From assembly GCA_044229845.1 (NCBI GenBank), contig JBGASG010000002.1, forward strand, positions 128,001 to 192,000: a stretch of DNA of 64,000 bases, in the 5' to 3' direction. A program made the position numbers and the translations under genes. Numbering within the stretch: position 1 is the first letter of the stretch; every line of letters starts with the position of its first letter. A model generated the notes under the pieces. That model did no database searches and was not told where the DNA came from. It worked only from the letters and a program-made list of their open reading frames with translations. The DNA is from Candidatus Obscuribacteraceae bacterium. GTDB lineage: Bacteria; Cyanobacteriota; Vampirovibrionia; Obscuribacterales; Obscuribacteraceae. Positions 14,186 to 54,965 of this stretch are shown piece after piece.

Positions 14186-14758
14186 ATGCATATCACCATC
14201 CTCGACCTGAAACCAGCCGGCGCCAAAACGCACGAAGAAGTCGCTCAACTCGTGTTGAACGGAATGTCCGCCGGCGCACCAACTGCGTGGCCGACGATCG
14301 AGGATGCGCGGGAAGAAGTCGCGGAGTCGTTCGAAGAAGATCGAATCAGCCTGGTGGCAATTGCTGACAACGGGCGCGTTGTCGGTTGGATCGGTGGCAT
14401 CTCGTGTTATGACGGCAACGTCTTCGAGTTGCATCCCCTGGTAGTCAAGGAAGATCACCGCAATAAGGGCATTGGAAAGAAACTGGTAGCGGCACTCGAG
14501 GAACGCGCGCGAGAAGCCGGCGCCTGCACGATGTTTTTGGGAACCGATGACGAAGTCGATCGCACCAGCCTTTTCGGACACGATTTGTATCCGGATCCGC
14601 TCGTCCACCTAAGCGCTTTGCAAAATCTGCGCGGGCACCCCCTCGGCTTTTACCAGAAGTGCGGTTACTCAGTGATCGGCGTTTTGCCGGATGCCAACGG
14701 ACCCGGCAAGCCAGATATCTTCATGGCGAAGCGCCTGGCAACTACTTCCGTTTCTTAG
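14186..14758 (+). CDS. GNAT acetyltransferase, AAC(6')-I-like
   Basis: [46 protein letters not shown]. Confidence 0.85.
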
Positions 14759-25904: not shown

Positions 25905-25982
25905 GCCCGTGTGATGCAACTGGCAGACATCGCCGTCTTAAAAACGGTGTTTCTGGTGGTTCGAATCCACTCACGGGCACCA
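25905..25982 (+). tRNA. tRNA-Leu(TAA), short variable loop, CCA encoded
   Basis: GCCCGTG/CACGGGC acceptor stem, loop CTTAAAA, GTTCGAATC T-arm. Confidence 0.88.
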
Positions 25983-25985
25983 CAT

Positions 25986-26062
25986 GCCGACGTGATGCAA
26001 CTGGCAGACATCCTCGCCTCAGAAGCGCGGTTCTGGTGGTTCGAATCCACTCGTCGGCACCA
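25986..26062 (+). tRNA. tRNA-Leu(CAG), short variable loop, CCA encoded
   Basis: GCCGACG/CGTCGGC acceptor stem, loop CTCAGAA. Confidence 0.88.
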
Positions 26063-26064
26063 TC

Positions 26065-26141
26065 GCCGGTGTGATGCAATTGGCAGACATCGATAGCTCA
26101 AACCTATCGTCTTGGTGGTTCAACTCCACTCACCGGCACCA
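26065..26141 (+). tRNA. tRNA-Leu(CAA), short variable loop, CCA encoded
   Basis: GCCGGTG/CACCGGC acceptor stem, GATAG/CTATC stem, loop CTCAAAC. Confidence 0.88.
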
Positions 26142-26144
26142 CTG

Positions 26145-26220
26145 GCCGACGTGATGCAATGGCAGACATCGTTGATCGAGAATCAACGTCCTGGTGGTTC
26201 GAGTCCACTCGTCGGCACCA
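26145..26220 (+). tRNA. tRNA-Leu(GAG), short variable loop, C33, CCA encoded
   Basis: GTTGA/TCAAC stem, loop TCGAGAA. Confidence 0.85.
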
Positions 26221-26278
26221 CTTTTTCAAATCACCCTGAACCAATATGAGGAAGAAACTTGAATACGGAGAAACGACC

Positions 26279-26368
26279 CGGCGGGTGAAGCCGAGTTGGT
26301 CGAAGGCGCCGTCCTGTAAAGTCGGACTCGCAAGAGTTAACACGTAGGTTCGAATCCTACCCCGCCGA
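26279..26368 (+). tRNA. Atypical tRNA-Tyr(GTA)
   Basis: CGGCGGG/CCCGCCG acceptor stem, loop CTGTAAA, variable arm ACTC-GCAA-GAGT, GTAGG-TTCGAAT-CCTAC T-arm; no CCA. Confidence 0.8.
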
Positions 26369-34530: not shown

Positions 34531-35784
34531 TTAGCAAGCGAGCTCGTATTGCGATTGCAACTCGGACGTGGGTCCAACGACCACCAGCGAGAGCTGGTCG
34601 TTTCTCAAAAATTCATTGGCGATGTTCTTCAGTTCTTCCGAAGTCACTTTGTCGATGTCGTGACAGATCTCTTCGACTGTCAGTTGCCGACCGTAATAGA
34701 GTTCGCTGTACGCATTGCGACTGGTGCGGTAGCGCATCGATTCCAATCCGAGCAGAAGCTCCGATTTCAGTTGCGTCTTGGCGCGTTTGATTTCTTCGTC
34801 GGTCAGACCGTCCGCTTTCACTTTCTGGAACTCAGCTCCGGTCAACTCCAGCACCTGCGAAACGTGCTTGGGACTGGTGCCGGCATAAACGCCGAACAAT
34901 CCGGCTTTAGTATGGCTTTCGCGGAATGTATTGATGCTGTACACCAGACCGCGTTTCTCGCGCACTTCCTGGAACAGGCGCGATGACATGTTTCCTCCCA
35001 GGCAGAGATCGAGAATCGCCAGGGCATAACGGCGTTGATCGAGCATTTCGATACCGGGCACGGCCAGCACCAGATGCGCTTGTTCGATGTCGCGGTGTTT
35101 GACGAGGTTGAATCGTTCGTATGCCGGAGTGCCGACATCGGGCTTCTGCAACCCAACGGACAATCTATTGAGACCTCGCGACAGCTGTTCAATCACTTGC
35201 TTGTCGTCGAACTTACCGGCGATCGAGATAACAAAGTGCTCGGGGTGGTAAAAATCGCGAACATGCTCTTTGAGCATTTCGCTGGTCAGCCCGCACACGG
35301 TCTCGGCAGTGCCGGTTATCGGTCGGCTTAGAGGATGTTCAGGCCAGATGTTGGCAATCAGCGTCTCGTGCGTGACGTCCTCGGGATCGTCATCGTACAT
35401 CTTGATCTCTTCGAGGATCACCTGGCGTTCCATATCCAGGTCATCTTGCGCCAAGCGGGCGTCGGTCAGCATATCGAGCAGCAGATCAATCGCCACATGC
35501 ACACGGTCGCCCATGACGCGCCCGTAAAAACAAGTGTTCTCTTTTCCGGTGGCGGCGCCGAGGCTGCCGCCGACATCTTCGATCTCCTGCGCAATTTCGC
35601 GCGCCGTGCGCTTGCGAGTGCCCTTGAATAGCATGTGCTCGAGACAATGCGAGACACCGTTTGTCTTCAGTGTCTCGTCTTGGGAACCGACATCAACCCA
35701 CACACCAATAGAAGCGGAATACACCTCATCGACGACTTCGGTGATGATGCGCGCTCCATTGTCTAACTTTGTGGTTTGTATCAT
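34531..35784 (-). CDS. M16 family zinc peptidase
   Basis: HCLEH (HXXEH), SSRLFQEVREKRGLVY. Confidence 0.95.
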   Translation of the reverse strand: MIQTTKLDNGARIITEVVDEVYSASIGVWVDVGSQDETLKTNGVSHCLEHMLFKGTRKRTAREIAQEIEDVGGSLGAATGKENTCFYGRVMGDRVHVAIDLLLDMLTDARLAQDDLDMERQVILEEIKMYDDDPEDVTHETLIANIWPEHPLSRPITGTAETVCGLTSEMLKEHVRDFYHPEHFVISIAGKFDDKQVIEQLSRGLNRLSVGLQKPDVGTPAYERFNLVKHRDIEQAHLVLAVPGIEMLDQRRYALAILDLCLGGNMSSRLFQEVREKRGLVYSINTFRESHTKAGLFGVYAGTSPKHVSQVLELTGAEFQKVKADGLTDEEIKRAKTQLKSELLLGLESMRYRTSRNAYSELYYGRQLTVEEICHDIDKVTSEELKNIANEFLRNDQLSLVVVGPTSELQSQYELAC

Positions 35785-35857
35785 TCTCCAAACGCCGTGG
35801 CCGGGCGCTTCCGGTGCCAATTATAGCCGACTCCGGGGCAACCAACAGCAGTGAAAC

Positions 35858-36204
35858 AAACAAAAACACCACCCGAACTGAATCGCGGTGGTGTTTTCGC
35901 TACTGTCTGACTGCCCGTTGCTCGGGCTCAGTATTTCCTCACGCTTCAGCCAGTCCTTCACGTGGGGCGAGCTCACATCAGCTGTCGTTCCCGGTCAGCG
36001 CTGACCTGACGTTTCCGCTTGGCTCCTCGGCTCGACGCGATTGCAATTTCAGTTCAACCGCTCACCTGATGCATTCAAGAATACAGGTCAGTTTCACGCC
36101 CGAGAAGTACCCCAGAGGACCTTTAATAATCAGCGTTTTGCGTATACAAAACCCGCATCAGAAGCTATGGACTAGCACCACATTTGGTTAAGAAGCGCTC
36201 GATC
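35858..36204 (-). ncRNA. Putative ~350-nt structured ncRNA, copy 1 of 9
   Basis: Conserved repeat; covarying stems; G-U pairs favour the minus strand; terminator hairpin 35867-35893 plus minus-strand U tract. Confidence 0.75.
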
Positions 36205-36357
36205 CACGCGCGCCCCAAAGGGCTCAGGCATTCCATATTCTTTATATATAGGTACGCAATCGAATCGATCGCCCGCCCCGCCCCAATTTATATAAACGCA
36301 TCGCCAATAAGCGACTGCAGGCTCTAAAATGAGACAGAACAAAGGATCGCCACTCCA

Positions 36358-38094
36358 TTGGATCGAGACCGCGACGAGCCCCTCATAAGCAACAGCCACC
36401 CGTCCGGAGTCCTGCGCGCCGGCTACATTCTGGGCGACCGCTACCGCATCGAAGGCTGCATCGGCGCCGGGGGCATGGGCGGCGTGTATAAAGCTACGCA
36501 CATCGAACTGCGGAATACGGTCGCCATCAAAGTAATGCATTCGCGTTTCTCGGTCGACCAGAATGCAGTGGCGCGCTTCCATCGAGAAGCCAAAATCATC
36601 TCCGGACTGCATCACAAAAACATTTTGTCGGTCTACTCGTTTGGAAGCGCCGACGGACTTCTCTATTTGGCGATGGAATTCATCGACGGTCGGTCGCTTG
36701 GAGATTTGATCAGAGAACAAAAACTGCGGTCACAGAAAAACAATGCCATTGCGATTCTTCTGCAAATCTGCGATGCAATGGCTTACGCACACCACCAACA
36801 CGTATTGCACCGCGATCTCAAGCCCGACAATGTACTGATTACCAAGGCCGATCAGACAGCCAAAGTGGTCGACTTCGGATTGGCAAAATTGACTGACGAA
36901 GAAATGCAGCGACTGACAAGCACCGGTCTGGTCGTGGGAGATCCGCGCTATATGAGTCCGGAGCAGTCTCAGGGAAAACCAGTTGACGGACGCTCGGACA
37001 TTTATTCCTTTGGATGTTTGATGTACGAGCTGCTTGCCGGCCGCTGCCCATTCGATGCCGATGCGCCCGTTGCGATTCTCTTCAAACAGATCTCGGAAAA
37101 TCCCGAACTATTTGCTGACGAAACCAACCTTTCGCGCTCACTGCAAGCCATAACGCTGCAGTGCATGCAAAAGGATCCTCAGTTGCGTTATCAATCGTTT
37201 GAAGAAATTGCCGTGCAGTTGCAAATACTCGCGAGCGATCCTGATGCGAAAGTGGAAGGGAGCCACAGCAAAGCTCGTGCTGGTGCTCAAAAACATCCGG
37301 CATCCCCACAAAAAAAACGATTGCTCGCCGTCTTTACCGGGGTGGTTATCACTACGCTTGCCGGTCTGTGTGTGCTGCTTCTCTTGACCCAGTCAAACTC
37401 AAACACGAACGCAACCGGTAAGGATCAGCAAACCGATCACGATCTGCGCCAAGTGCTGGAAAAACTCAAACGCTCATACCACGACGAAGCAAAGTACAAA
37501 AGGGAGTCGCTGGAAGCAGAAAGCATCGCGTCCCAAAATCCCGGCGCGGTCAGTCCTCTTTATCGGGGGCGACTTGATTACGTTCACGCCAGGGTGCTGC
37601 AAGTGGAGACGTATCGATCAAGACCAGTTGAGAAACAGCAGCCCGGCTGGGAACAGGCGCTTAGCTACAGTCGCAAGTCAGTAGTTGAACTAAAGAAGGC
37701 GCGAGCAGATGACGCTTCCTCCTACAGCACTCACACGCGCACGGCAACCGGCTTGCTGATGATGAAGGAAGAAGATCAATATTTCTTCGATTCGATTTTG
37801 CTTTGGCAAGCGATGGCGGAGAAGTGCAATCGGGCCAATGAAGTCGAATCCTCAATGAACGAGATAATGGACTTCTGCGAACGATTCAAAATCGAATCCG
37901 ACTCCGCACCACGCATGACTCCGCTGTGGCAGCTGAAGATCAGTCGCATCGTGCAGACCGGCGATCGGACTGCAGCAAAAACCATCGCCGAGCGCTATTT
38001 GCGGTGCCTGAGGAAACAAGGCTATAAAGCAAGCTTTATTGACGATCAGGTGCGCGCAGTCAGAGCATTGGCGGGAATCGACTTACCGAATTGA
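36358..38094 (+). CDS. Membrane Ser/Thr protein kinase 1 (TTG start)
   Basis: GAGGMG, VAIK, HRDLKPDN, DFG, GDPRYMSPEQ; TM; helical C-domain. Confidence 0.95.
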   Translation: MDRDRDEPLISNSHPSGVLRAGYILGDRYRIEGCIGAGGMGGVYKATHIELRNTVAIKVMHSRFSVDQNAVARFHREAKIISGLHHKNILSVYSFGSADGLLYLAMEFIDGRSLGDLIREQKLRSQKNNAIAILLQICDAMAYAHHQHVLHRDLKPDNVLITKADQTAKVVDFGLAKLTDEEMQRLTSTGLVVGDPRYMSPEQSQGKPVDGRSDIYSFGCLMYELLAGRCPFDADAPVAILFKQISENPELFADETNLSRSLQAITLQCMQKDPQLRYQSFEEIAVQLQILASDPDAKVEGSHSKARAGAQKHPASPQKKRLLAVFTGVVITTLAGLCVLLLLTQSNSNTNATGKDQQTDHDLRQVLEKLKRSYHDEAKYKRESLEAESIASQNPGAVSPLYRGRLDYVHARVLQVETYRSRPVEKQQPGWEQALSYSRKSVVELKKARADDASSYSTHTRTATGLLMMKEEDQYFFDSILLWQAMAEKCNRANEVESSMNEIMDFCERFKIESDSAPRMTPLWQLKISRIVQTGDRTAAKTIAERYLRCLRKQGYKASFIDDQVRAVRALAGIDLPN

Positions 38095-38095
38095 A

Positions 38096-38443
38096 AAACA
38101 AAAACACCACCCGAACTGAATCGCGGTGGTGTTCATGCTACTGCCTGACTGCCCGTTGCTCGGGCTCAGTATTTCCTCATGCTTCAGTCAGTCCTTCACA
38201 TGGGGCGAGCTCTCATCAGCTGTCGTTTCCGGTCAGCGCGGACCTGGTGTTTCTGCTTGGCTCCTCGGCTCGACGCGATTGCAACATCAGCTCAATCGCT
38301 CACCTGATGCATTCAAGAATACACGGCAGCTTCATACCGGAGAAGTACCCCAGAGGACCTTTAATGATCGGCGCTTCGCGTATACAGAACCCACACCAGG
38401 AGCTATAGACCGGCACCACATTCGGTTAAGAAGCGCTCGATCC
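38096..38443 (-). ncRNA. Putative structured ncRNA, copy 2
   Basis: Homologous to 35858-36204. Confidence 0.75.
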
Positions 38444-38604
38444 ACGCGCGCCCCAAAGGGTTCCGGCATTCCATATCGTTTATACAAGTACTTATATATA
38501 AACGCGACAGCGATCCGCCCTAAAGTCACCCGGTTCCATATAGACACATCGCTAACTATCAACCCGAGAGCGTAAAATGAGAAGGAACAAAGGAAGCATC
38601 GTAA

Positions 38605-40338
38605 TTGGATCAAGACCTCCCGAGCACCATACAATCCGGCACGATTCTCGACGGCAAGTACCGCATCGAAGGCTACATCGGCGCGGGCGGTATGGGTAGC
38701 GTCTACAAAGCGATACACGTGCAGCTCGGCAACCCGGTCGCCATCAAAATCATGCACCCGCGGTTTTCACTCGACACCAATTCGACAGCCAGGTTCCACA
38801 GAGAAGCGAAGATCATTTCCGGGCTGCATCACAAGAACATTCTGGCGGTCTATGCATTTGGTTCCAGCGACGGATCTCTATACATGGCAATGGAATTCGT
38901 TGATGGGCAGTCGCTAGGAGATCTGATCAGGGAGCGCGGACCGATGGCGCCGGAAAGTGCAGTACAAATACTCCTACAGATTTGCGAGGCGATGACCTAC
39001 GCGCACCGGCACAAAGTATTACATCGCGATTTAAAACCAGACAACGTACTTTTGGAGCGAGACACCGCGCTGGCAAAAGTCGTCGACTTCGGACTGGCTA
39101 AACTGACTGACGCGGAAACGCAACGACTGACGAGTACCGGCATGATCGTCGGTGACGCGCGCTACATGAGCCCCGAGCAATCGCAAGGCAAGCCGATCGA
39201 TCAACGTTCAGACGTGTACTCATTCGGCTGCCTGATGTATGAAACACTTGCGGGACGCTGCCCGTTTGAAGCAGATACGCCGGTTGCGGTTTTGTTCAAG
39301 CAAGTCTCAGAGGATCCGCAGCCCTTCGCCGCCGATTCGAATATCTCGCGTTCGCTGCAGGCAATTACACTCCAGGCAATGCAGAAGGAGCAACAACAGC
39401 GCTATCAATCGTTTGAAGAGATCGCCACACAATTGCAAAAACTCGTCGGCGATCCAAATGCAAAAGTCGACGGCAGTCACCGTAAAGCATTACCAAAATC
39501 GGCCGGCTCAGGCAGAATGAACAAAGCCACGGCGCTCACAGCGGTACTACTCCTCGCCCTGGCAGCAGTACTGGTGCAGCCGTTGCTGGCATTTTTTCTG
39601 CCGCGCGCGCTGGACAACGAGAACACAACCGGCAATCAGCAATCGAAGCGAACGGCAGAAATGCAAATAGCCAACTTGATACGACAACTAGTATTGCGCG
39701 GTCCTCGCGACGAGCAATTCAGCTCGCTTCTCAACGAAGCCGAATCAATTGCAAAGCAAAATCCTGACATCGACCTCGCGTTCAAGGGTCGTCTCAAATT
39801 TATGCACGGGCGATTAATCGAATCCCGCCACCTAGCAACACACGCCAAGCCAAATATCTTCAGCGATCTGAAGGCTCAAGATAAGCGCAACCTGCAGGAG
39901 GGGCTAAATTACAGCCGCATTGCGGTAAACGAATTACGACAGTCCATGACCGACGCGGAATCGCATCGTGTCTGGAAATCAGAAACCGCCAGTGGATTGA
40001 AACCTCTGCTCGTCGAAGAAATACACTTTCTCGAGTCGCTGGCGCTCTGGCGAGAGATGTCCATTCTGTGCGATTCGTTTTCGGAGATAGAAGCTGCTTC
40101 GGCCCAGATATTTCAAATCTCGGATAGATACAAAATCGACTACGCCAACGAAGCATTAGTGCGCTCTGCGTATGCCGAGTTGATCGAGTTTTACAGGCTT
40201 CGGCACAAGACGTCCGCTGCCGACATCTTGACGAAACGCTATCTGGACAATTTGAAACTGCAGGGCTGCGATCCGCTATTCATCGCCGATGAGCAAAAGC
40301 GGCTACAAACGCAAAAACAAAAACACCACCCGAACTGA
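38605..40338 (+). CDS. Membrane Ser/Thr protein kinase 2 (TTG start; ends KQKHHPN within the repeat)
   Basis: Hanks motifs, GDARYMSPEQ, TM. Confidence 0.95.
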   Translation: MDQDLPSTIQSGTILDGKYRIEGYIGAGGMGSVYKAIHVQLGNPVAIKIMHPRFSLDTNSTARFHREAKIISGLHHKNILAVYAFGSSDGSLYMAMEFVDGQSLGDLIRERGPMAPESAVQILLQICEAMTYAHRHKVLHRDLKPDNVLLERDTALAKVVDFGLAKLTDAETQRLTSTGMIVGDARYMSPEQSQGKPIDQRSDVYSFGCLMYETLAGRCPFEADTPVAVLFKQVSEDPQPFAADSNISRSLQAITLQAMQKEQQQRYQSFEEIATQLQKLVGDPNAKVDGSHRKALPKSAGSGRMNKATALTAVLLLALAAVLVQPLLAFFLPRALDNENTTGNQQSKRTAEMQIANLIRQLVLRGPRDEQFSSLLNEAESIAKQNPDIDLAFKGRLKFMHGRLIESRHLATHAKPNIFSDLKAQDKRNLQEGLNYSRIAVNELRQSMTDAESHRVWKSETASGLKPLLVEEIHFLESLALWREMSILCDSFSEIEAASAQIFQISDRYKIDYANEALVRSAYAELIEFYRLRHKTSAADILTKRYLDNLKLQGCDPLFIADEQKRLQTQKQKHHPN

Positions 40339-40661
40339 ATCGCGGTGGTGTTTATGCTACTGCCTGACTGCCCGTTGCTCGGGCTCAGTATCTCCTCACG
40401 CTTCAGCCAGTCCTTCACGTGGGGCGAGCTCACATCAGCTGTCGTTTCCGGTCAGCGCTGACCTGGTGTTTCCGCTTGGCTCCTCGGCTCGACGCGATTG
40501 CAATTTCAGTTCAATCGCTCACCTGATGCATTCAAGAATACACGGCAGTTTAGCGTACGAGAAGTACCCCAGAGGACCTTTAATGATCTACCTTACGCGT
40601 ACACGAACCCCGCACCAAAAGCTATTTCCTTGCACCACATTTGGTTATGAAGCGCTCGATC
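40315..40661 (-). ncRNA. Putative structured ncRNA, copy 3
   Basis: Homologous to copy 1. Confidence 0.75.
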
Positions 40662-40823
40662 TATGCGCGCCGCAATGAGTTCCGGCATTCAATATCGTTT
40701 ATACAGGTACTTATATATCGATGCGGCGAGAAACCCGCCCAGGGTCGCTCGATTCTATATAGGCGTATCGCCAACTATCGACCGGAGAGCGTAGAATGAG
40801 AAGGAACAAAGGATCGCCCAAGC

Positions 40824-42587
40824 TTGGATCACACAGACGAACAGCAACTTGCCTCGAATACGCAGTCGCTTGCGGGCGGCGGATTGTCCACAGGCACGAT
40901 TCTTGACGGCAAATTTCGCATTGGTAGCTATATCGGCGGTGGAGGCATGGGCGCAGTCTTTAGCGCCACTCATCTGAAGTTAGGAAATCAGGTAGCCATC
41001 AAAGTTCTGCACTCTCGATTTGCGGTCGATCAAAATGCGGTGGCACGGTTTCATCGCGAAGCAAAAATCATCGCCGGGCTGCACCACAAAAACATTCTTT
41101 CCGTCTACGCTTTCGGTTCAGCAGATGGGCTCTTGTACATGGCAATGGAGCTTGTCGACGGCAAGTCGCTTGGAGACCTGATCGCACAGCACGGATCGTA
41201 TTCACCGGAGCGAGCCATTCCCCTTCTTCTTCAGATTTGCGATGCCATGAGTTATGCGCACCAACAAAAAGTCTTGCATCGCGACTTGAAGCCGGACAAC
41301 GTGCTCGTAACCAATGCCGATGACACAGCAAAAGTCGTCGACTTCGGGCTGGCAAAACTTACTGATGCAGAGATGCAAAGACTGACCACCACCGGCATGG
41401 TGGTCGGCGATCCGCGCTACATGAGCCCGGAGCAATCACAAGGCAAGCCGGTCGATGCTCGCTCCGACATCTACTCTTTCGGTTGCTTGATGTATGAAAT
41501 GTTGGCCGGAAGGCGTCCGTTCGACGCTGATACACCGGTTGCAATTCTTTTCAAGCAGATCTCCGAATACCCCGAATCTTTTGCAGATCAGACCAACATT
41601 TCACTGTCGCTTCAGGCGATAGCGTTTCAGGCTCTGCAAAAAGATCCGCAGGCACGGTATCAATCAATTGACGACCTGTCCAGCCAACTGCTCAAGTTGT
41701 CGCGAAATCCAGATGCAAAAGTCGAAGGAGTACGCGCTGGTGGCACGCCTACCCAGTCGCGCAGCACAACCGGAAGTCGCGCAGCGCGCCAGCATGCACT
41801 AAAAATGCTGATCGGTGCATTGCTAGTTGTGGGAGCAATCACGGTCGGCATGGTCATCATTGGCACCAGCACTCGACTGAGCAACGAAGAAGGGCTGCGA
41901 GCAAGCACCCGGCACGAAGTCAGACTTGAGTTCGACTCGCTGATTTCCAACCAGGGCTTTGTCGGCGACCAGAACCCCACAGACGCTCTGGAGCGAGCGC
42001 AAATCCTAGTTGCCCAGTACCCAGAGGAATTCAATTCCAGCGATCGAGCGAAGCTTGATTTGGTACAGGCTCTGAATTTCGAGAGGCTGGGTCGTTATAG
42101 AGAACCAGACAAAATAAAACTCGCGCAGACGCATAACAAAGGGGCCATTTCTCAACTGGAGACTGCCCTCAAAGTACATTCCGACCATCGCCGCCAAAAC
42201 AACATGCCCACGACGGATGCCGGCATGGAACCCTGGAGTAGTGATTCACGTTATTTATTTGAAGCACTACTGCTCCAATCAAGGTTGGCCGATCGAACCG
42301 GCGACCTCAAAGAGATGCGGAGCGCCATAGACTCGCTCCTCTCATTCGCAGAAAAATACGAGTTACCCTACACCATAGACAGGCGCCTGCTAAGAGAGGC
42401 GTGCGAAAGGTTGATTATGGCTTACGGTCAAGCGAACGACAGGCAGGCAGCAGAACAAGTACTGCAGCGCTTTATGAATTGCCTGGCAACTCAAGGTGAC
42501 ATCACCGCATTTACCGATAACGATGAACGATTGCTGCGCGACACCATGGAAAAGGCCTTCGACAAACAAAAACACCACCCGAACTGA
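40824..42587 (+). CDS. Membrane Ser/Thr protein kinase 3 (TTG start; ends KQKHHPN)
   Basis: Hanks motifs, GDPRYMSPEQ, TM. Confidence 0.95.
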   Translation: MDHTDEQQLASNTQSLAGGGLSTGTILDGKFRIGSYIGGGGMGAVFSATHLKLGNQVAIKVLHSRFAVDQNAVARFHREAKIIAGLHHKNILSVYAFGSADGLLYMAMELVDGKSLGDLIAQHGSYSPERAIPLLLQICDAMSYAHQQKVLHRDLKPDNVLVTNADDTAKVVDFGLAKLTDAEMQRLTTTGMVVGDPRYMSPEQSQGKPVDARSDIYSFGCLMYEMLAGRRPFDADTPVAILFKQISEYPESFADQTNISLSLQAIAFQALQKDPQARYQSIDDLSSQLLKLSRNPDAKVEGVRAGGTPTQSRSTTGSRAARQHALKMLIGALLVVGAITVGMVIIGTSTRLSNEEGLRASTRHEVRLEFDSLISNQGFVGDQNPTDALERAQILVAQYPEEFNSSDRAKLDLVQALNFERLGRYREPDKIKLAQTHNKGAISQLETALKVHSDHRRQNNMPTTDAGMEPWSSDSRYLFEALLLQSRLADRTGDLKEMRSAIDSLLSFAEKYELPYTIDRRLLREACERLIMAYGQANDRQAAEQVLQRFMNCLATQGDITAFTDNDERLLRDTMEKAFDKQKHHPN

Positions 42588-42910
42588 ATCGCGGTGGTGT
42601 TAATGCTACTGCCTGACTGCCCGTTGCTCGGGCTCAGTATTTCCTCATGCTTCAGTCAGTCCTTCACATGGGGCGAGCTCACATCAGCTGTCGTTTCCGG
42701 TCAGCGCGGACCTGGTGTTTCTGCTTGGCTCCTCGGCTCGACGCGATTGCAACTTCAGTTCAATCGCTCACCTGATGCATTCAAGAATACACGCCAGGTT
42801 CGAGCCCGAGAAGTACCCCAGAAGACCTTTAATGATCTACATTACGCGTATACAAAAATGGCACCATTACTTATTCTCCGGCACCACATTCGGTTATTGA
42901 GAGCCGGATC
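42564..42910 (-). ncRNA. Putative structured ncRNA, copy 4
   Basis: Homologous to copy 1. Confidence 0.75.
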
Positions 42911-43063
42911 AATGCGCTCAGCAAGCGGCTCGGGCGTTCAATATGCGCAATATATAAATCCCGATCAAGGTGTATCCAAAATTCCCCCGGATCGATATAG
43001 CACATCGCCAATTTCGTACTTCAGGGCATAAAATGAGAGAGAAGAAAGGATCAAAGTGGCATA

Positions 43064-44851
43064 GTGGAATCCCAAGAAACAGCCGGCGCACTGCCCAACG
43101 GCACTGTCGTCGACGGCAAATTCGAAATCACCGGATTCATCGGCGCCGGCGGCATGGGCACCGTCTATCGCGCCCGCCACATTGAGCTGGGCAGCGCCGT
43201 GGCCCTCAAAACACTGCACCCGCGTTTTTCGGTGGACCAGGACGCGTCCGCTCGTTTTCGTCTCGAAGCCAAGATCATCGCCGGGCTGCACCACAAAAAC
43301 ATTCTGGCCGTGCACGCGTCCGGCTACAGCAACAACTTGCTCTACATGGCAATGGAATTGATCGAAGGAACTTCGCTGAGGGCAATGGTTGCAGAAGGCG
43401 GCTCCCTGAGCACCAGCGCAGCGTTGCCTCTTTTGATCCAGATTTGCGACGCGATGATTTATGCACATGCCAACAAGGTTTTGCATCGCGACTTAAAACC
43501 GGACAATGTATTGATCGAAACCAGGGGCACCGAGCGAACTGCCAAGGTCGTCGATTTCGGACTGGCTAAATTGACCGACATCGAAATGCAACGCTTGACA
43601 CAGACTGGGATGGTCGTCGGCGATCCGCATTTCATGAGCCCCGAGCAGGCTCAAGGCAGACAGGCGGATGAGAGGTCGGACATCTACTCATTCGGTTGCT
43701 TGATGTATGACGTGTTGTCAGGCAAGCCTCCCTTCGAGTCAGACTCCGATGTGGCGGTGCTCTTCAAGCAGGTCTCCGACGAACCACAACTCTTCGCAGA
43801 CGCGAAGGCGCCCGCGTGCTTGCGGTCGTGTCAATCGATTTGCTTTCAGGCGATGGAAAAGAATCCGGAGAGTCGATATCAGTCTTTTCAGGAAGTTCGC
43901 AATGAGTTGCAGAAACTTGCAGACAATCCCGATGCGAAGATTTCCGCCTCGTCAAGAATGGCTAAGGAGGCCGCAGCGGGACGAGGTCCCGGAGCGCACA
44001 AATTCCGTCGTTTGCCTGCAACAGTTGCCGCCGTTGCGTTGTTTGCGCTGCTTTGCTTCGCGGCTGCGAAGTTCTTGCACCAAGAAGATGCAGACACACC
44101 GACCGACAAAACCCCGTCGACTGCATCCCAACCCGACGTCGCTAAATTGAAGGAAGCGTACAAGAACCTCAGCGAACGCGATGCACGAGAGAGAGTCAAA
44201 GAATTGATTTCGGTGCTCCAGCGCGCACATCTTTCGGAGTCCGCACGAAAAGCGACTTTTGCAGAGCTGGACATTGCGGAATCGCGTATCGGTTTCGACC
44301 CATTGCAGAGCGGACGTGCCGAATACGAACGAGCGGCATCAATGATGCGCTCCGTAATGGAGCAACCGCAGAGGAATCTGACCATGGATACGGTCGAAGG
44401 TCGCGAAGCCATCGAGCATTGCCGCAAGGCGCTCGCTCACTACAATAAGATCATCTCGCTCTACCAGCGCAGACCAACAGTGAACGACGCAGAGCTGAGC
44501 GATATCAACGCCGCCTCCGTTGAACTGTACCGCACTTACTCTCTCCTGATTCAGATCGCGAATACATACAGTGACTACAAAACAGTGAAGAAGGCCGCGA
44601 AAGAGTGCGTTCGACTCTGCGAATACGCGAAAGTGCCGCCAGGCACTCTGGAAGCTTGCCAGACAGCATTCGACACACTGATCATGATCGACGTTCAAGA
44701 CGTTGATACTGAGGGCGCGCAGAGTATGTCGCAGCGCAAGTTGGCTTTTCTAAAATTGCAGGGCTTCGATGCCGATTCGCTGAAGGAAGAGAAAAGAAAC
44801 CTGACAATCAAGATGCGGGAATGGTCAAAACAAAAACACCACCCGAACTGA
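43064..44851 (+). CDS. Membrane Ser/Thr protein kinase 4 (GTG start; ends KQKHHPN)
   Basis: Hanks motifs, GDPHFMSPEQ, TM. Confidence 0.95.
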   Translation: MESQETAGALPNGTVVDGKFEITGFIGAGGMGTVYRARHIELGSAVALKTLHPRFSVDQDASARFRLEAKIIAGLHHKNILAVHASGYSNNLLYMAMELIEGTSLRAMVAEGGSLSTSAALPLLIQICDAMIYAHANKVLHRDLKPDNVLIETRGTERTAKVVDFGLAKLTDIEMQRLTQTGMVVGDPHFMSPEQAQGRQADERSDIYSFGCLMYDVLSGKPPFESDSDVAVLFKQVSDEPQLFADAKAPACLRSCQSICFQAMEKNPESRYQSFQEVRNELQKLADNPDAKISASSRMAKEAAAGRGPGAHKFRRLPATVAAVALFALLCFAAAKFLHQEDADTPTDKTPSTASQPDVAKLKEAYKNLSERDARERVKELISVLQRAHLSESARKATFAELDIAESRIGFDPLQSGRAEYERAASMMRSVMEQPQRNLTMDTVEGREAIEHCRKALAHYNKIISLYQRRPTVNDAELSDINAASVELYRTYSLLIQIANTYSDYKTVKKAAKECVRLCEYAKVPPGTLEACQTAFDTLIMIDVQDVDTEGAQSMSQRKLAFLKLQGFDADSLKEEKRNLTIKMREWSKQKHHPN

Positions 44852-45174
44852 ATCGCGGTGGTGTTTTCGCTACTGCCTGACTGCCCGTTGCTCGGGCTCA
44901 GTATTTCCTCACGCTTCAGCCAGTCCTTCACGTGGGGCGAGCTCACATCAGCTGTCGTTCCCGGTCAGCGCTGACCTGACGTTTCTGCTTGGCTCCTCGG
45001 CTCGACGCGATTGCAATTTCAGTTCAATCGCTCACCTGATGCATTCAAGAATACACGGCAGTTTCATACCCGAGAAGTACCCCAGAAGACCTTTAATGAT
45101 CCGCACCACGCGTATACGGAAATGGCACCATCGCTTATTCCCTGACATCACATCCGGTTATCGAGCGCCCGATC
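44828..45174 (-). ncRNA. Putative structured ncRNA, copy 5
   Basis: Homologous to copy 1. Confidence 0.75.
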
Positions 45175-45329
45175 AATACGCTGCGCAAGAAGCTCCAGCG
45201 ATCCCTATATCATTCATATCGATTCGGCGACGGCGACATAACTGCAGCACCACGGATCGATATAGCTGTATCGCCAATTCCCGACTCGATGACCTAAAAT
45301 GAGAGAGAAGAAAGGATCGAGTCGCCAGC

Positions 45330-47111
45330 GTGGATCAGGAAAATCTATCTTCAGCAGACGGCGGCCAGGCTGCCAATCACGCGGCGCTGGCGGCGGGAAC
45401 CATCCTCGACGGCAAGTATCGCATCGAGAGTTTCGTCGGCGGCGGCGGCATGGGATCGGTCTATCGAGCCCATCACCTGGAACTGGACAAAGAAGTTGCG
45501 ATTAAGACCATGCATCCGCGGTTTTCAGCCGATGCGGAATCAGTGGCGCGCTTTCAGCGCGAAGCGCACATCATCTGCGAGTTGCACCACAAAAACATTC
45601 TTGCCGTCTACGCCTTCGGCATCGACAAGCAGCTCGATCTTCTTTATATGGCGATGGAGTTTGTCCAGGGACAATCGCTGGGACGACTGATTGCCGAACG
45701 CGGAGCGATCAGTCCCCAACAGGCTCTGCCTCTGCTGATGCAAATTTGTGATGCCATGGCATACGCGCATGCCAATAACGTCCTGCATCGCGATTTAAAA
45801 CCGGACAACGTGCTGATTGCAAATTCCGAAAGCGGTGAACCGGTTGTGAAGGTGGTCGATTTCGGACTGGCAAAAATAACTGATGCCGAAATGCAAAAAC
45901 TGACCAGCACCGGCATTGTGGTCGGCGATCCTTATTACATGAGCCCCGAACAGGCACAGGGACGCACAGTCGATGCGCGATCAGACATTTATTCTTTTGG
46001 CTGCCTGATGTACGAAGTGCTGACAGGTGAGCGTCCGTTTGTGGGCGAGTCGACTGTGGCGATCTTATATAAGCAAATCGGCGAGAGCCCACCACCTTTT
46101 CCTGAAGCAAAGACCAACCTGGCTCGATCGTGCCACTCGATTGTTTTCGAAGCGATGCAGAAATCGGTCGACAAGCGTTACCAATCTTTCGCAGACATCG
46201 GACAGCAACTGGCCAAGCTGCATGCCGACCCGGACGCAAAGGTGGAAGGCATTCAATCGGTTCCGACTTCTCGCGGCATCAGCAGCCCGTCGCGCATGTT
46301 ATCAACCAAAACTGTAATCCGCGTTCTCGCCGTCGTACTGCTGGTGGCAGTGCTGCCCGCAGTTTCTTTTCTGATCCTCAATCCGCGCAAGGTGTCGCCA
46401 ACCAAAGTTGAACCCGACGATGGATACAGCACCTTATCAACAGCCGATGTGCGCGCGCGAGTAAATCAATTGCTTTCGCTCACTAGAGATTCCGAATATC
46501 AGGTCGACCGCGCCGAATCTGCAATGCGCGAGTTGGAAATAGCACGAAAACACATAGGCGAAGACCCTTTTATGCAGGGACGGATCGATGCCCACCATGC
46601 CGTAGTCTTACGGCTGAGAATGCAAAAAACGAACTCGAATGCTGAGTACACCAAACAGATCGCATTTGGGCAAAAAGCCGTCGACGAATTCGATACCGCT
46701 GCTCGGCTGAGCGATGCCGGCGGACGTTATACCGCAGTCAATCAAACCGCCAGTCTGGAACACATCAGAAAAGAGCAGTTGTGGGCGCTGGAAGTAATCC
46801 GCGAAACCGCGCAAGAGATCGGCGACAGAAAAACAGCGCGCGCTGCTGCAAATCGCATTCTCGAGCTCTGGGAACACGTTCCGACAAAATCGCCCGACCC
46901 GATCGTTGAGAGTGCGTTCGACGAGTTACTTGAGTGCAGCCTGAACGAGGATCATCCCGAGGAAGTCGAGAAAATTGCAAAGCGCGCTATGGAGTATTAC
47001 CAGCACACCAAGTGCGACGTCTCGTTCATCCAAAAGCAAAAGAAGAAACTTGACCTGGCACGGTCGCTGGCAACACAGAAGCTGGCAAAACAAAAACACC
47101 ACCCGAACTGA
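45330..47111 (+). CDS. Membrane Ser/Thr protein kinase 5 (GTG start; ends KQKHHPN)
   Basis: Hanks motifs, GDPYYMSPEQ, TM. Confidence 0.95.
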   Translation: MDQENLSSADGGQAANHAALAAGTILDGKYRIESFVGGGGMGSVYRAHHLELDKEVAIKTMHPRFSADAESVARFQREAHIICELHHKNILAVYAFGIDKQLDLLYMAMEFVQGQSLGRLIAERGAISPQQALPLLMQICDAMAYAHANNVLHRDLKPDNVLIANSESGEPVVKVVDFGLAKITDAEMQKLTSTGIVVGDPYYMSPEQAQGRTVDARSDIYSFGCLMYEVLTGERPFVGESTVAILYKQIGESPPPFPEAKTNLARSCHSIVFEAMQKSVDKRYQSFADIGQQLAKLHADPDAKVEGIQSVPTSRGISSPSRMLSTKTVIRVLAVVLLVAVLPAVSFLILNPRKVSPTKVEPDDGYSTLSTADVRARVNQLLSLTRDSEYQVDRAESAMRELEIARKHIGEDPFMQGRIDAHHAVVLRLRMQKTNSNAEYTKQIAFGQKAVDEFDTAARLSDAGGRYTAVNQTASLEHIRKEQLWALEVIRETAQEIGDRKTARAAANRILELWEHVPTKSPDPIVESAFDELLECSLNEDHPEEVEKIAKRAMEYYQHTKCDVSFIQKQKKKLDLARSLATQKLAKQKHHPN

Positions 47112-47435
47112 ATCGCGGTGGTGTTAATGCTACTGCCTGACTGCCCGTTGCTCGGGCTCAGTATCTCCTCACGCTTCAGCCAGTCCTTCACGTGGGGCGA
47201 GCTCACATTAGCTGTCGTTTCCGGTCAGCGCTGACCTGACGTTTCTGCTTGGCTCCTCGGCTCGACGCGACTGCATTTCTCAATCAATCGCTCACCGGTA
47301 TGCAAATAAGATTACCGCGCGAATCGCCGCCCGTGAAGTACCCCAAAGGACCTTTAATGATCCGCATTCTGCGTATACAGAAGTGGCATCATCACTTATT
47401 CCTCGGCACCACATCCGGTTATTAAGCGCCGGATC
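47088..47435 (-). ncRNA. Putative structured ncRNA, copy 6
   Basis: Homologous to copy 1. Confidence 0.75.
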
Positions 47436-47585
47436 AATAAGTGCGGAAAGCGCTTCCGGCGTTTCATATGCGCAATGCATAAGAACAGATCCGCTTACTA
47501 TCCGATGCGCCACCGCTTGCATATAGCAAGGCCGACAAGTGTCGCCGTCAGTGGAATAATGAGACTGGCATAACTGAGATTCATT

Positions 47586-51280: not shown

Positions 51281-51629
51281 AAACAAAAACACCACCCGAA
51301 CTGAATCGCGGTGGTGATCATGCTACTGCCTGACTGCCCGTTGCTCGGGCTCAGTATTTCCAAACGCTTCAGTCAGTCCGTCACGTAAGGCGAGCTCACA
51401 ACAGCTGTCGTTCCCGGTCAGCGCTGACCTGATGTTTCCGCTTGGCTCCTCGGCTCGAAGCAATTGCATTTCTCAATCAATTGCTCACCGGTTATGCATA
51501 TAAGAATAGCAAGCTTTCGCAGACCCGACCACTACCCCAAATGACCTTTAATGATCTAATTTTCGCGTATACGAAAGGCGCATCAACACCTATTCTTTGA
51601 CACCACATATGGTTTTTAAGCGCTCGGCC
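51281..51629 (-). ncRNA. Putative structured ncRNA, copy 7
   Basis: Homologous to copy 1; second subtype with compensatory changes. Confidence 0.75.
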
Positions 51630-51781
51630 AACAAGCTGCGCAAGCGATGGCGCGATCGAATATGCGATACATATCACCGAACGCGCATGCCATTTCAAGA
51701 AACTTTCAACCGCACCTCACTAGCATGTCGGCAAAAGCAAGCAGTCCTTGTATAACAGAGGAAGGCACAGGGTTTTCAAGA

Positions 51782-53130
51782 TTGGACCACGACGAAACGG
51801 CAATCGACAACGCGCGACTATCAACCGGAACCGTCGGACAACGTCATCGTTGTGAAGAGCGAAGAAAAGCTTTCGACAGCAACGGTGAAAGTGGTCGATT
51901 TTGGATTAGCCAAGTTGCAAGGCGACAACGACATGCAGCGGCTGACCAGAACCGGCGAAGTCTTCGGCGACCCAAGCTACATGAGCCCAGAAGCCGTTTC
52001 CTGCCGACAATCCAGTCGCCATCTTGATGAAACAGGTTTCGCAAGAACCACCTCCGCTGCCTCAACAGCTGGCGGTGCCGCCCGCGATCGAGGCGATTAT
52101 CTGGCGCGCCATGCAGAAAGACCCGGCTGAGCGGTACGACTCATTCGATGCAATCGCAGCAGAGCTGCGCAACTATGCCGACAATCCCGAGGCGGGAAGC
52201 CGCGCGCGACTGCCGGCGCGCAGCATCGGCGGACAGGCAGGGAAGAAGGGCAAGCAACGATTGCTTGTGACTGGAGCAATCGCGGTCGGTGTTTTTATTG
52301 CCGCGGCGGGGATGTACCTGGCATCAACCAACACACACAACACCGCGACTACAGCCTGCGAGCCATACGAACACCTGTCGCCGAACGAACTGCGACAGCG
52401 CGCCTACGCCCTCATGACGTCGGCATCCGATGCCGCCAAGCTCGGGCAGTATGAGGACGCCAACAAAACGCTGGCTGAGTTGCAGAGATTGCGACGTTAT
52501 CTGGTCACTGACGAAGATACGCAGGGGCACATCGACTACAACATCGCCTTCGTAGCGATGGCCGAAGGAGACAACAATTCCAAAGCACTGCAGCGCAAAG
52601 CCCTCGACTACTATTGCAGTTCAGCCGAACATCTCAAGAAAGCGCGCACCGCGATTTTGTCCAGCAGTCAGCCGCTGTCCAGCTTGCAACTTTTGAAAAT
52701 CGAGGAAGGATTGATCCTGTCCCTCGATGGCGAGCGGCGGGTGGCGGGATATCTGCAAGACAAAACCGCCGCCGATCGCGCCTGTCGCGAGACGCTTGAT
52801 TTTTGCGAAGGCAAATCCGCACCGATTGATAAAGGCAGGAGTCACTCTGCGCAAGCCAGTTTCGACTGGCTGTTCTCTCGAGCTATCCAGACGAAACGCC
52901 TGAAGCGCGCCTACAAACTGATGAAGCGGAAGATAGCGTTTCTTGAGATGCAGAAAGTCGATCCTGGTTTCTTGCAAGAAGCGCGAACCAGCATGGAACA
53001 TCAACTGGTTGAAGCAGCCGCGAATCAGCAAGGCAAGCGTTTCTCCAAATTTGAAGATGCCGAAGATGCGACGGATGCAGAAGATGCGACGGATGCAGAA
53101 GATGCGACGGATGCAGAAGATGCGCAGTGA
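51782..53130 (+). pseudogene. Kinase 8 with two internal deletions/frameshifts; TM and C-domain remain an intact ORF (52024-53130)
   Basis: LDHDETA..LSTGTV joins directly to DNVIVVK..DFG..GDPSYMSPE, which joins directly to KPFPADNPVAILMKQ, in three frames. Confidence 0.85.
53052..53124 (+). repeat. Coding 18-bp tandem repeat (EDATDA)
   Basis: GAAGATGCGACGGATGCA x3 plus partial copies. Confidence 0.9.
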
Positions 53131-53134
53131 ACAC

Positions 53135-53483
53135 AAACAAAAACACCACCCGAACTGAATCGCGGTGGTGTTTAAGCTACTGCCTGACTGCCCGTTGCTC
53201 GGGCTCAGTATTTCCAAACGCTTCAGTCAGTCCGTCACGTAAGGCGAGCTCACAACAGCTGGTGTTTCCGGTCAGCGCTGACCTGATGTTTCCGCTTGGC
53301 TCCTCGGCTCGAAGCAATTGCATTTCTCAATCAATTGCTCACCGGTTATGCATATAAGAATAGCAAGTAATTCCGAGGCGTGCCACTACCCCAATGGACC
53401 TTTAATGATCTAATTTCCGCGTATACGGAAGGCGCATCAACACTTATTGTTTGGCACCACATGTGGTTACTAAGCGCTTGAAC
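53135..53483 (-). ncRNA. Putative structured ncRNA, copy 8
   Basis: Homologous to copy 7. Confidence 0.75.
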
Positions 53484-53647
53484 CATTTGCGGCACAACGC
53501 GATCGACAAACGCATATTCGATCCATATATCATCCGAGAGGGGATCTGAGATCAGGGTTTACCCGGGAAACTCGACAGTACTCGACCGGCTACCCGAAAC
53601 CGGCGCCGGACGTACGATAGAAGTGCCCGCCCAACTTGGCAACGCCC

Positions 53648-54403: not shown

Positions 54404-54752
54404 AAACAAAAACACCACCCGAACTGAATCGCGGTGGTGTTCATGCTACTGCCTGACTGCCCGTTGCTCGGGCTCAGTATTTCCAAACGCTTCAGTCAGT
54501 CCGTCACGTAAGGCGAGCTCGCGATAGCTGTAGTTTCCGGTCAGCGCTGACCTGATGTTTCCGCTCGGCTCCTCGGCTCAAAGGCGTCGCATTTCTCAAT
54601 CGACGACTCACCGTTGATGAAAGTAAGAATAGCGCGGATCTCGAGGTTCGACCACTACCCCAAATGACCTTTAATGATCTTCGTTTTGCGTATACAAAAG
54701 CGGCATAAACACTTATGTCTTGGCACCACATTTGGTTACTAAGCGCTTGAAC
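54404..54752 (-). ncRNA. Putative structured ncRNA, copy 9 (most divergent)
   Basis: Homologous to copies 7-8; compensatory CGTCG/CGACG stem. Confidence 0.75.
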
Positions 54753-54965
54753 CATTTGCCCCGCAAGCCGCTCCGGCTGTCGATATACGCCATATATAAC
54801 TTGCCAACTCGGCCGTGTTCGGAAAGGCGCAAAACGACGTTGCAGCTCAGCCGTAAAATGCGAAGTGATATCAGTTGGGTTGGAACTCGGACTGCTCCGT
54901 GGAGTCGTTATGGGTGTCGAGCCGGACCATATATAGCCGGGCGATTTCTCGGGAGGATGTCCGCT

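Follow-up and report, generated by a model that had tools for sequence, protein, structure and literature searches.

Nine tandem poplar-1 RNA genes in a Candidatus Obscuribacteraceae genome, with a covarying pseudoknot and a probable 5' extension of the catalogued model

Large bacterial RNAs with complex folds, such as OLE, raiA, ROOL and GOLLD, are several hundred nucleotides (nt) long and combine multi-branch junctions, a pseudoknot and conserved unpaired bases with a narrow host range and high abundance. NsiR1 of Nostoc and the Yfr2 family of the cyanobacteria are RNA genes that occur in repeated copies, every copy having its own promoter and terminator; their products are short regulators (about 60-100 nt) made of a single hairpin. 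Tandem copies also occur among RNAs of the Rsm type. Poplar-1 (Rfam RF03041) was reportedly described in 2017, in a survey of 224 candidate RNAs, where its sequences came from metagenomes of poplar-chip bioreactors and had neither a host organism nor a function assigned to them, and to our knowledge it is an orphan Rfam entry for which no host and no function are known. We describe here an array of nine poplar-1 RNA genes in a stretch of 64,000 nt (the window) from Candidatus Obscuribacteraceae bacterium (assembly GCA_044229845.1, contig JBGASG010000002.1, positions 128,001 to 192,000), together with the relatives of these genes in other genomes.

The family itself was already known, and our additions to the catalogue are the apparent truncation of its model, a covarying pseudoknot and a host lineage. 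We found no paper on any of these three, in a search that did not extend to the supplement of the original survey, which may already record the pseudoknot and the host. The word "poplar" does not occur in the main text of that survey (PMC5737381).

The nine copies and the fold of the core

The array consists of nine direct repeats of about 300-430 nt each, the starts of which are the first coordinates of RNA copies 1 to 9 in Table 1. An Rfam scan of the window matched all nine to RF03041 on the minus strand, with scores of 131.7-137.2 bits and every match spanning model positions 1-141 of 141; the gathering score of the family is 110.5 bits, and each copy exceeds it over the whole model. Each repeat is a separate structured non-coding RNA gene on the minus strand and belongs to poplar-1. 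A search of the whole genome assembly (5.16 Mb, 88% complete) returned the nine window copies as its only poplar-1 matches. The first-pass annotation, made from the letters of the window, had proposed a conserved minus-strand RNA fold at 35858-36204, supported by six stems (a to f) that covary or are invariant between copies. That interval covers copy 1, beginning at the terminator and ending about 34 nt before the predicted 5' end. Stems d and e lie inside the 141-nt model, f is the terminator just 3' of it, and a, b and c fall in a 5' extension for which no matching Rfam family was found.

In the nine copies alone, 94.6% of 765 cells pair (85 pairs including the pseudoknot), and 10 of the 85 pairs change on both sides. 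Shuffled controls had 92.6% of cells paired, with 0 of 500 reaching the observed value, and controls with slid partner columns had 34-41%. The nine copies are related paralogues that carry little independent information, and relatedness alone can beat shuffle controls, so relatives were sought. The deeper test was a MAFFT alignment of 40 sequences, including 31 copies from other genomes and not fitted to any structure, in which the core stems, stem a, helix k, the terminator and the pseudoknot were counted together. Here 97.1% of 2311 cells are paired, as against 86.0% in shuffled alignments (0 of 500 reaching the observed value) and 34-38% with slid columns. Both-sided change occurs at 42 of the 58 pairs, and the same fold covaries in other genera. 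The opposite strand would lose about 7% of the pairs (171 G-U cells against 6 A-C cells), and this excess of G-U over A-C assigns the fold to the minus strand, as had been proposed.

The window copies agree with the catalogued family in the whole 141-position model, its stems and its conserved junction bases. In the 40 sequences the core helices are 96-100% paired, with the nested stems of RF03041 (an outer stem holding two inner hairpins, and a 3' stem in two parts) formed, and 21 of 28 core pairs change on both sides when stem a, helix k, the pseudoknot and the terminator are left out of the count. The conserved unpaired bases are all present and are invariant or nearly so in the 40 sequences: GAGCCGAGG, two GGAAAC, GAAGGACUG, GAAAUACUGAG and CAGUAGC. 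Among the nine copies, stem d changes from CACG/CGUG to CAUG/CAUG in copies 2 and 4 and stem e (GCCCG-AGCAA-CGGGC) does not vary, just as the first-pass annotation read them.

The loop of stem d pairs with an internal loop of the last core stem to form a pseudoknot, CUGRCU lying opposite AGYCAG. It is 99% paired in the 40 sequences, and three of its five pairs covary, one of them occurring as GC 16, AU 12 and GU 10 times. Two of the pairs are also among those with the highest mutual information in 133 distinct copies with full flanks, taken from other loci (GC 108 and AU 22 for one; AU 72, GC 40 and GU 16 for the other). The pseudoknot is seen in the window copies. The cmscan structure line for RF03041 cannot display pseudoknots, and the published drawing may already contain it.

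Each core is followed by a predicted intrinsic terminator. Its hairpin, which includes CACCACC/GGUGGUG, runs directly into UUUUUGUUU in nine of nine copies, and the first-pass annotation was right that this element is unchanged throughout the array. In the 40 sequences the terminator is 97.7% paired and 11 of its 13 pairs covary. A simple terminator scan did not list a terminator for the RNA, the probable cause being the bulged stem.

Protein coding does not account for this conservation, as no reading frame stays open across 320 nt (from 150 before to 170 after the GAGCCGAGG anchor) in more than 8 of the 133 copies; the longest open stretch in them has a median of 81 codons, and the frames vary. 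In tandem units 1-5 identity is 94.4% for the RNA core, 85.4% for the 5' part of the RNA and 53.9% for the kinase DNA duplicated along with it. The RNA part is thus far better conserved than the kinase DNA of the same duplicated unit, which argues for selection on the RNA. Judged from these comparisons, the RNA appears to be under strong purifying selection.

The 5' extension and the ends of the transcript

The RF03041 model lacks about 230 conserved nt that precede the core in the window copies. A hidden Markov model (HMM) built from the nine 430-nt copies aligns to other genera well past the Rfam core, and in 125 of the 133 distinct copies the alignment starts at an HMM position below 60 of 416. 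Strong conservation is seen in the blocks UCCRGCGCUUGUUAA, UUAAA, GGGGUAC, GCAU and CGGUGAG. The catalogued model begins at UUUGAGCCGAGG and treats these bases as unpaired; in the window copies the same bases pair with a conserved upstream CGGU, to form what we call helix k.

The fold of this extension was not apparent to general methods. RNAalifold, one of the checks named in the first-pass annotation, recovered stem a, the core and the terminator from the MAFFT alignment and predicted nothing 5' of stem a; averaged base-pair probabilities 5' of stem a did not rise above 0.25 at any point, and a simple helix scan of the 5' region returned mostly G/U-rich noise. For the first 70 nt or so, RNAalifold on a family sub-alignment gave no consensus fold. 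Only realignment to a model was informative. A structure taken from 17 copies of the genus was made into a covariance model, which was searched against 100 sources, rebuilt from the matches and searched again. The second model, which describes the 141 nt just 5' of the Rfam core, gave 139 matches (135 full length) at 35.6-121 bits. The resulting model-fitted alignment holds 122 distinct copies and leans towards the structure supplied, and the family-wide values given below from 122 copies are to be read with that lean.

The extension is connected to the core through stem a and helix k. As the first-pass annotation had noted, stem a changes from CGAUUG/CAAUCG to CAAUUG/CAAUUG in copies 7-8 and to CGUCG/CGACG in copy 9, with G-U variants in copies 1 and 6, and these changes are found in the nine-copy alignment. 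It is paired at 97.5% in the 17 genus copies, at 91.2% in the MAFFT alignment of 40 sequences (six of seven pairs covarying) and at 94.5% in the 122 copies (seven of seven), and is thereby confirmed across the family. Helix k is paired at 86.8% in the genus copies and 98.8% in the 122. It is nearly invariant, two of its four pairs never varying and one having a single both-sided change in the 122 copies, and its partners in the core, GAGCCG, are the first bases of the Rfam model and are unpaired in that model. Further upstream, a long-range helix (PL) encloses the remaining elements; it is paired at 97.8% in the nine copies, 92.9% in the genus and 77.6% in the 122 copies, where four of four pairs covary.

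The elements inside helix PL are less uniform. Hairpin b, with its UAUACG loop, has the compensatory arms that were claimed for it, UUUUG/CAAAA in copies 1 and 9, UUCUG/CAGAA in 6, UUUCG/CGAAA in 7 and UUCCG/CGGAA in 8, and these five are the only copies in which all five pairs form. Copies 2-5, which the first reading had omitted, each have a mismatch at the middle pair and form four of the five pairs (copies 2, 4 and 5) or three (copy 3). Hairpin b is paired at 77.8% in the nine copies and 74.5% in the genus; in the 122 copies three pairs were kept in the model, with 68.8% paired and an inner pair that is CG 29, UA 29 and UG 9 times. The replacement of GGGUAC/GUAUUC by GGGUAG/CUAUUC in stem c of copies 7-9 was also described correctly, with the correction that the first form occurs in copies 1-6 and not 1-5. 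Three G-U pairs of this stem are invariant in the nine copies. It is paired at 95.1% in them (closing pair C-G in six, G-C in three) and, with two outer pairs, at 94.8% in the 17 genus copies. In the 122 copies it is paired at 65.3%, with a closing pair that is CG 31, GC 12 and other 78 times, and in most genera its two central G-U pairs become G/A oppositions (GU 19, other 102; GU 55, other 55). Its inner hairpin is 55.6% paired in the same alignment. Stems b and c therefore appear to hold in the genus of the window and, by these counts, only partly in the family at large. The UUAAA hairpin is 100% paired in the genus with no covariation and 58.9% paired family-wide; its existence beyond the genus is unproven from the alignments.

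A -10-like box lies at the same alignment columns in the nine copies, and conservation begins there, which leads us to place the predicted start near 36238 and to expect an RNA of about 375 nt. A simple sigma-70 scan called no promoter for the RNA. The functional RNA is probably about 375 nt long and not 141 nt, with ends that we infer from the box and the U tract, and we take the extension and the core to form what would be one molecule.

Table 1. Coordinates of the poplar-1 copies, the elements of copy 1 and the neighbouring kinase genes in the window
Feature	Position	Strand	Remarks
RNA copy 1	35858..36238	-	about 375-380 nt; 3' end in U tract, 5' end predicted; repeat family D1 and nine-copy alignment
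RNA copy 2	38096..38476 (5' end approximate)	-	RF03041 at 38134-38274, 131.7 bits; repeat D1
RNA copy 3	40315..40695 (5' end approximate)	-	RF03041 at 40353-40493, 137.0 bits; repeat D1
RNA copy 4	42564..42944 (5' end approximate)	-	RF03041 at 42602-42742, 131.9 bits; repeat D1
RNA copy 5	44828..45208 (5' end approximate)	-	RF03041 at 44866-45006, 135.1 bits; repeat D1
RNA copy 6	47088..47469 (5' end approximate)	-	RF03041 at 47126-47266, 136.8 bits; repeat D1
RNA copy 7	51281..51663 (5' end approximate)	-	RF03041 at 51319-51459, 133.9 bits; repeat D1
RNA copy 8	53135..53517 (5' end approximate)	-	RF03041 at 53173-53313, 135.4 bits; repeat D1
RNA copy 9	54404..54786 (5' end approximate)	-	RF03041 at 54442-54582, 135.2 bits; repeat D1
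RF03041 core, copy 1	35896..36036	-	137.2 bits, model positions 1-141; contains stems d and e
Stem d	35960-35967 with 35937-35944	-	within poplar-1 core
Stem e	35923-35927 with 35913-35917	-	within poplar-1 core
Pseudoknot	35907..35953	-	stem d loop CUGGCU (35948-35953) with AGUCAG (35907-35912), internal loop of last core stem
Intrinsic terminator (stem f)	35854..35896	-	13-pair hairpin 35864-35896 and U tract UUUUUGUUUGUUU
Helix k and stem a	36028..36067	-	CGGU (AGGU in copies 1-5) with GCCG-type partner; stem a (36055-36061 with 36037-36043) within
Long-range helix PL	36068..36159	-	GAUGC (36155-36159) with GCAUC (36068-36072); encloses hairpin b, UUAAA hairpin and stem c
Stem c	36075..36116	-	GGGGUAC with GUAUUCU, two outer pairs and a small inner hairpin
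UUAAA hairpin	36118..36131	-	GAUU-AUUAAA-GGUC; loop UUAAA near-invariant
Hairpin b	36135..36152	-	arms 36147-36152 and 36135-36140, loop UAUACG
Conserved 5' motif GGAUCGAGCGCUUCUUAACC	36185..36204	-	family consensus UCCRGCGCUUGUUAA; conservation 0.7-0.9 in 133 copies
-10 promoter box (predicted, by eye)	36241..36250	-	TATATA/TATAAA, same alignment columns in nine copies; inferred start about 36238 +/- 4
Serine/threonine protein kinase genes, seven full-length	36358-38094, 38605-40338, 40824-42587, 43064-44851, 45330-47111, 47586-49304, 49360-51270	+	Pfam Pkinase E 1e-46 to 1e-54

Host range and presence in RNA libraries

We searched 61 genomes, that of the window and 60 relatives, together with 14 control genomes. 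A poplar-1 match was found in 36 of the 61, above the gathering score in 33 of them, with 1-12 matches per matching genome. In the family of the window 32 of 36 genomes have a match, and in a second family of the same order all three do, at scores just under the cut-off. No match was found in 21 genomes from seven other families of the class or in the 14 controls. Poplar-1 is restricted to one order, Obscuribacterales. In some genomes the RNA genes follow one another directly at distances of 490-870 nt, as in locus L031 (genome G006), where about 2.2 kb holds four copies; unlike the array of the window, which is interleaved with kinase genes, these have no kinase-like open reading frame (ORF) between them, in a check that covered kinase-like frames.

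A pattern scan of species-representative genomes gave at least 139 stretches. Among the matches listed, 94 fit the repeat HMM and 45 do not, and we regard the latter as chance matches. Most of the true matches listed are in records titled Candidatus Obscuribacterales, Obscuribacter, Melainabacteria or "Cyanobacteria bacterium SZAS". True poplar-1 was also seen on contigs of metagenome-assembled genomes titled Drouetiella, Bryobacterales, Actinobacteria or Oculatellaceae (L052, L063, L083, L084, L105 and L117). These oddly titled copies suggest problems of labelling or binning and not a wider host range. Of seven pattern matches in IMG/VR, one is a true poplar-1 (L187, a 2581-nt contig, positions 23-156, 119.1 bits) and the other six are not. 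A viral origin was considered and set aside, one true contig being too little for a phage link.

A search of sequencing runs listed nineteen that are labelled as RNA and come from sludge, wastewater or compost, and between 7 and 17% of the words in a 2.6-kb query occur in each. Four runs from four studies were compared with 35600-36900 at 90% likeness. The contigs assembled from them cover 35864-36083 only, with word depths of up to about 6e5 as against about 5 on the adjacent peptidase gene. A 60-nt contig that is identical to the window has a depth of 6967. A 372-nt contig with a depth of 329 extends at least 255 nt 5' of the core, into sequence that resembles stem a of a relative. Such contigs are short and assembled and do not show starts, ends or strand; their depth, summed over organisms, measures expression poorly, and RNA libraries may contain DNA. 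That the contigs do not reach the remainder of the 5' domain or the kinase gene is no sign that these are silent. Contig ends that bear adapter fall at 35888, 35928-35932, 36052 and 36057; they could be fragment ends of an abundant RNA, and we do not take them as processing sites. The poplar-1 core is present in RNA libraries, and its high abundance is probable. According to a preprint, poplar-1 is among the RNAs enriched in the intracellular RNA of drinking water (10.1101/2025.10.18.683149).

Possible roles, neighbouring genes and comparison with known RNAs

We consider it likely that poplar-1 is an independent RNA gene of about 375 nt, with its own promoter and terminator, that acts in trans, and that its copies in the window arose by tandem duplication. 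Transcription of each copy, on the minus strand, would begin at a promoter and stop at an intrinsic terminator that belong to that copy. Some 230 nt of 5' sequence, joined to the core by stem a and the CGGU/GCCG helix, would form a multi-branch domain closed by the long-range helix, with the core locked by the pseudoknot. The product would act in trans as an abundant compact RNA, most likely as a ribonucleoprotein scaffold or as the binder of a cellular factor, and not as a cis-regulator of the kinase genes beside it. The nine copies would come from tandem duplication of a block holding one RNA gene and one kinase gene. Action in trans and not in cis is favoured by the diversity of flanking genes between genera, by the occurrence of RNA genes back to back and by the 116 kinase matches found in this genome.

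Between the RNA copies of the window lie seven full kinase genes, one broken kinase gene and two other ORFs. Six of the seven are divergent from an RNA copy; no RNA copy lies upstream of the seventh (49360-51270), which comes directly after the sixth. Beside copy 7, at 51647-53130, two ORFs of 126 and 368 amino acids match positions 150-207 and 229-587 of the kinase profile, each with no Pfam match, and the pair looks like a broken or frameshifted eighth kinase gene. The paralogues, tandem kinases of the receptor type, share a catalytic domain and a hydrophobic segment, followed by a highly diverged C-terminal half; within the overall kinase identity of units 1-5, the first 900 nt (the kinase-domain region) are 65.1% identical and the part from about nt 1000 is 42.0% identical. 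Kinases 2-5 end in KQKHHPN, and their last 24 nt are the complement of the terminator of the next RNA (40315-40338, 42564-42587, 44828-44851 and 47088-47111). The first kinase gene stops 1 nt before the repeat.

This arrangement could mean that the RNA acts on the kinase genes in cis or as an antisense partner, through a shared divergent promoter and the terminator overlap, so that transcribing one modulates the other, or through a hairpin that works as a two-way terminator; we regard this possibility as unlikely. Six RNA copies do have a full kinase gene diverging from them about 150 nt away, and one more lies upstream of the broken gene; the KQKHHPN ends are read from the complement of the RNA terminator; and a divergent kinase also stands beside the RNA in L032 and L065. 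Copies 8 and 9, however, precede ORFs that are not kinases, and, the terminator overlap aside, a core conserved at 94% needs no complementarity to kinase genes that have diverged to 54%. Among 29 other loci (L010-L038) the kinase profile is found in L030, of the same genus, and in L029 and L032 only, and outside the genus kinases flank the RNA in L029, L032 and L065 only. The window genome has 116 Pkinase matches in its 5.16 Mb, several of them in other tandem arrays and 7-8 in the poplar-1 array, so a kinase neighbour is to be expected fairly often by chance. A functional link drawn from the neighbourhood itself was accordingly rejected, and we treat the kinase flanks as incidental.

A survey of flanking genes points the same way. 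There were 154 non-nested ORFs that had 110 codons or more and lay no further than 700 nt from the RNA. We scanned 90 of them, drawn from the longest 110, with same-genus loci and a few ORFs overlapping longer ones left out. The matches were M16 peptidase (7), PALP (4), UbiD (3) and Pkinase (2), the rest being diverse or unmatched. A few syntenic forms among otherwise diverse flanks fit several old paralogous loci of a free-standing RNA gene.

Several observations weigh against an independent gene of about 375 nt acting in trans. The transcript ends are predictions, and the support from RNA libraries consists of the short contigs described above, which carry neither ends nor strand. These contigs reach about 45 nt past the core (36040-36083, that is, stem a and helix k) and not into the rest of the 5' domain, so co-transcription of that domain rests on one contig, on the near-invariant helix k and on conservation. 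Several 5' helices are weak family-wide even in the model-fitted alignment, namely the UUAAA hairpin (58.9%), stem c (65.3%) and its inner hairpin (55.6%). Four kinase genes have a 24-nt antisense overlap with the next RNA terminator, and each RNA shares a divergent promoter region of about 150 nt with a kinase gene, so some cis coupling with the kinase genes may exist. Trans action and any partner are themselves putative.

A bolder version of the trans-acting gene may be put forward, which we hold to be rather improbable: that the poplar-1 model represents no more than the 3' third of an RNA of about 375 nt with a pseudoknot, that this RNA is among the most abundant Obscuribacterales transcripts of wastewater and forms the core of a lineage-specific ribonucleoprotein or ribozyme, and that in the genus of the window it was amplified together with receptor-type kinases into RNA-kinase modules with paralogue-specific regulation through the variable 5' domain and the antisense overlap.

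It is very unlikely that the RNA is a cis-regulatory, riboswitch-like leader of a same-strand downstream gene. Such a reading would draw on the M16 peptidase gene at 34531-35820, on the minus strand like copy 1 and 3' of its terminator, on the recurrence of M16 peptidases in other genera (7 of the 90 flanking ORFs) and on the strong terminator at the end of the RNA, as in attenuating leaders. Eight of the nine copies, however, face the 3' end of a convergent gene, and downstream genes in other genomes are diverse. Between the terminator of copy 1 and the start of the peptidase gene there is a TATAAT-like box and a ribosome-binding site, which suggests a separate peptidase promoter. The terminator stem covaries as a constitutive hairpin, and no competing anti-terminator was seen. 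No constant same-strand position before a coherent set of genes was found in the flank survey, in which even the most frequent neighbour, M16 peptidase, accounts for 7 of 90 ORFs. M16 peptidase ORFs flank the RNA in L019, L064, L078, L086, L092, L096 and L103, all of other genera, and this neighbourhood looks like conserved synteny for one ancestral copy.

Highly improbable, in our view, is a protein sponge of the CsrB/RsmZ type, which would bind its protein through unpaired GGA motifs (two GGAAAC, AAGGAC and GAGGAAA). There are four or five such motifs in core loops or junctions, and the RNA is multi-copy, tandem and highly abundant; its fold, however, is a compact multi-branch structure with a pseudoknot, unlike a row of GGA hairpins. 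A search for CsrA (PF02599) found none in the window genome (88% complete), the same-genus genome or 33 of the 36 genomes of the RNA-bearing family; among the families without the RNA, 7 of 21 genomes have it. As a specific partner CsrA was rejected on these grounds, PF02599 having no match in G000 or G001 and matching in 3 of the 36 genomes of family f1. A substitute for 6S RNA was also considered and rejected. There was no RF00013 match in the window or the 88%-complete genome, in a search that found 6S in 5 of the 14 controls only and from whose limited sensitivity nothing follows as to a missing 6S; the fold is not 6S-like.

That the repeats are products of passive duplication or remnants of a mobile element, with stems that reflect shared ancestry, is scarcely credible: a tandem array does arise by duplication, and nine related copies can top shuffle controls through relatedness alone, but the fold covaries in the 31 copies from other genomes (42 of 58 pairs changing on both sides), within one duplicated unit the RNA has kept its sequence far better than the coding part has, the family occurs in 32 of 36 and three of three genomes of two sister families at several syntenic sites, and its depth in RNA libraries is high. 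The view of the first-pass annotation that the compensatory changes reflect selection on RNA structure and not passive duplication is upheld by the covariation in other genera, the strand asymmetry of G-U cells, the non-coding character of the repeat and the survival of a core that outlasts the kinase DNA duplicated with it.

Other repeats were noted elsewhere in the window. At 25905-26366 there are four tRNA matches within a tandem repeat of 79-nt period and 3.4 copies (25953-26222). A 30-nt repeat of 15.2 copies (92% matches) lies at 14751-15206 and, read by eye on the reverse strand, would encode a Lys/Ala-rich decapeptide repeat. A 69-nt repeat of 3.2 copies (95% matches) lies at 5408-5625.

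With these results poplar-1 gains a host lineage, the Obscuribacterales, a non-photosynthetic sister group of the cyanobacteria, and a gene anatomy of promoter, terminator and 1-12 matches per matching genome. It is also indicated to be very abundant in activated-sludge and wastewater communities. The catalogued model appears to be truncated: about 230 conserved nt, a pseudoknot and three covarying helices that lie outside it or reach across it are missing. Annotation would benefit from a corrected model of full length, and the RNA is a realistic target for probing, cryo-electron microscopy and pull-down. The finding by itself reveals no new mechanism.

Set beside the systems with which we began, poplar-1 resembles OLE, raiA, ROOL and GOLLD in its size, multi-branch junctions, pseudoknot, conserved unpaired bases, narrow range and abundance. 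It has no sequence or model similarity to them, poplar-1 being the only family matched in Rfam, and differs in its 1-12 matches per matching genome and its tandem arrays. With NsiR1 and Yfr2 it shares repeated RNA genes that have their own promoter and terminator, in a lineage related to the cyanobacteria; unlike them it is probably about 375 nt long with an elaborate fold, and the Rfam scan of the window gave no match to a model of either. Its likeness to the CsrB/RsmZ sponges lies in multiple copies, abundance and several unpaired GGA motifs, whereas its architecture is different and the CsrA gene was found neither in the window genome nor in 33 of 36 genomes of the family that bears the RNA.

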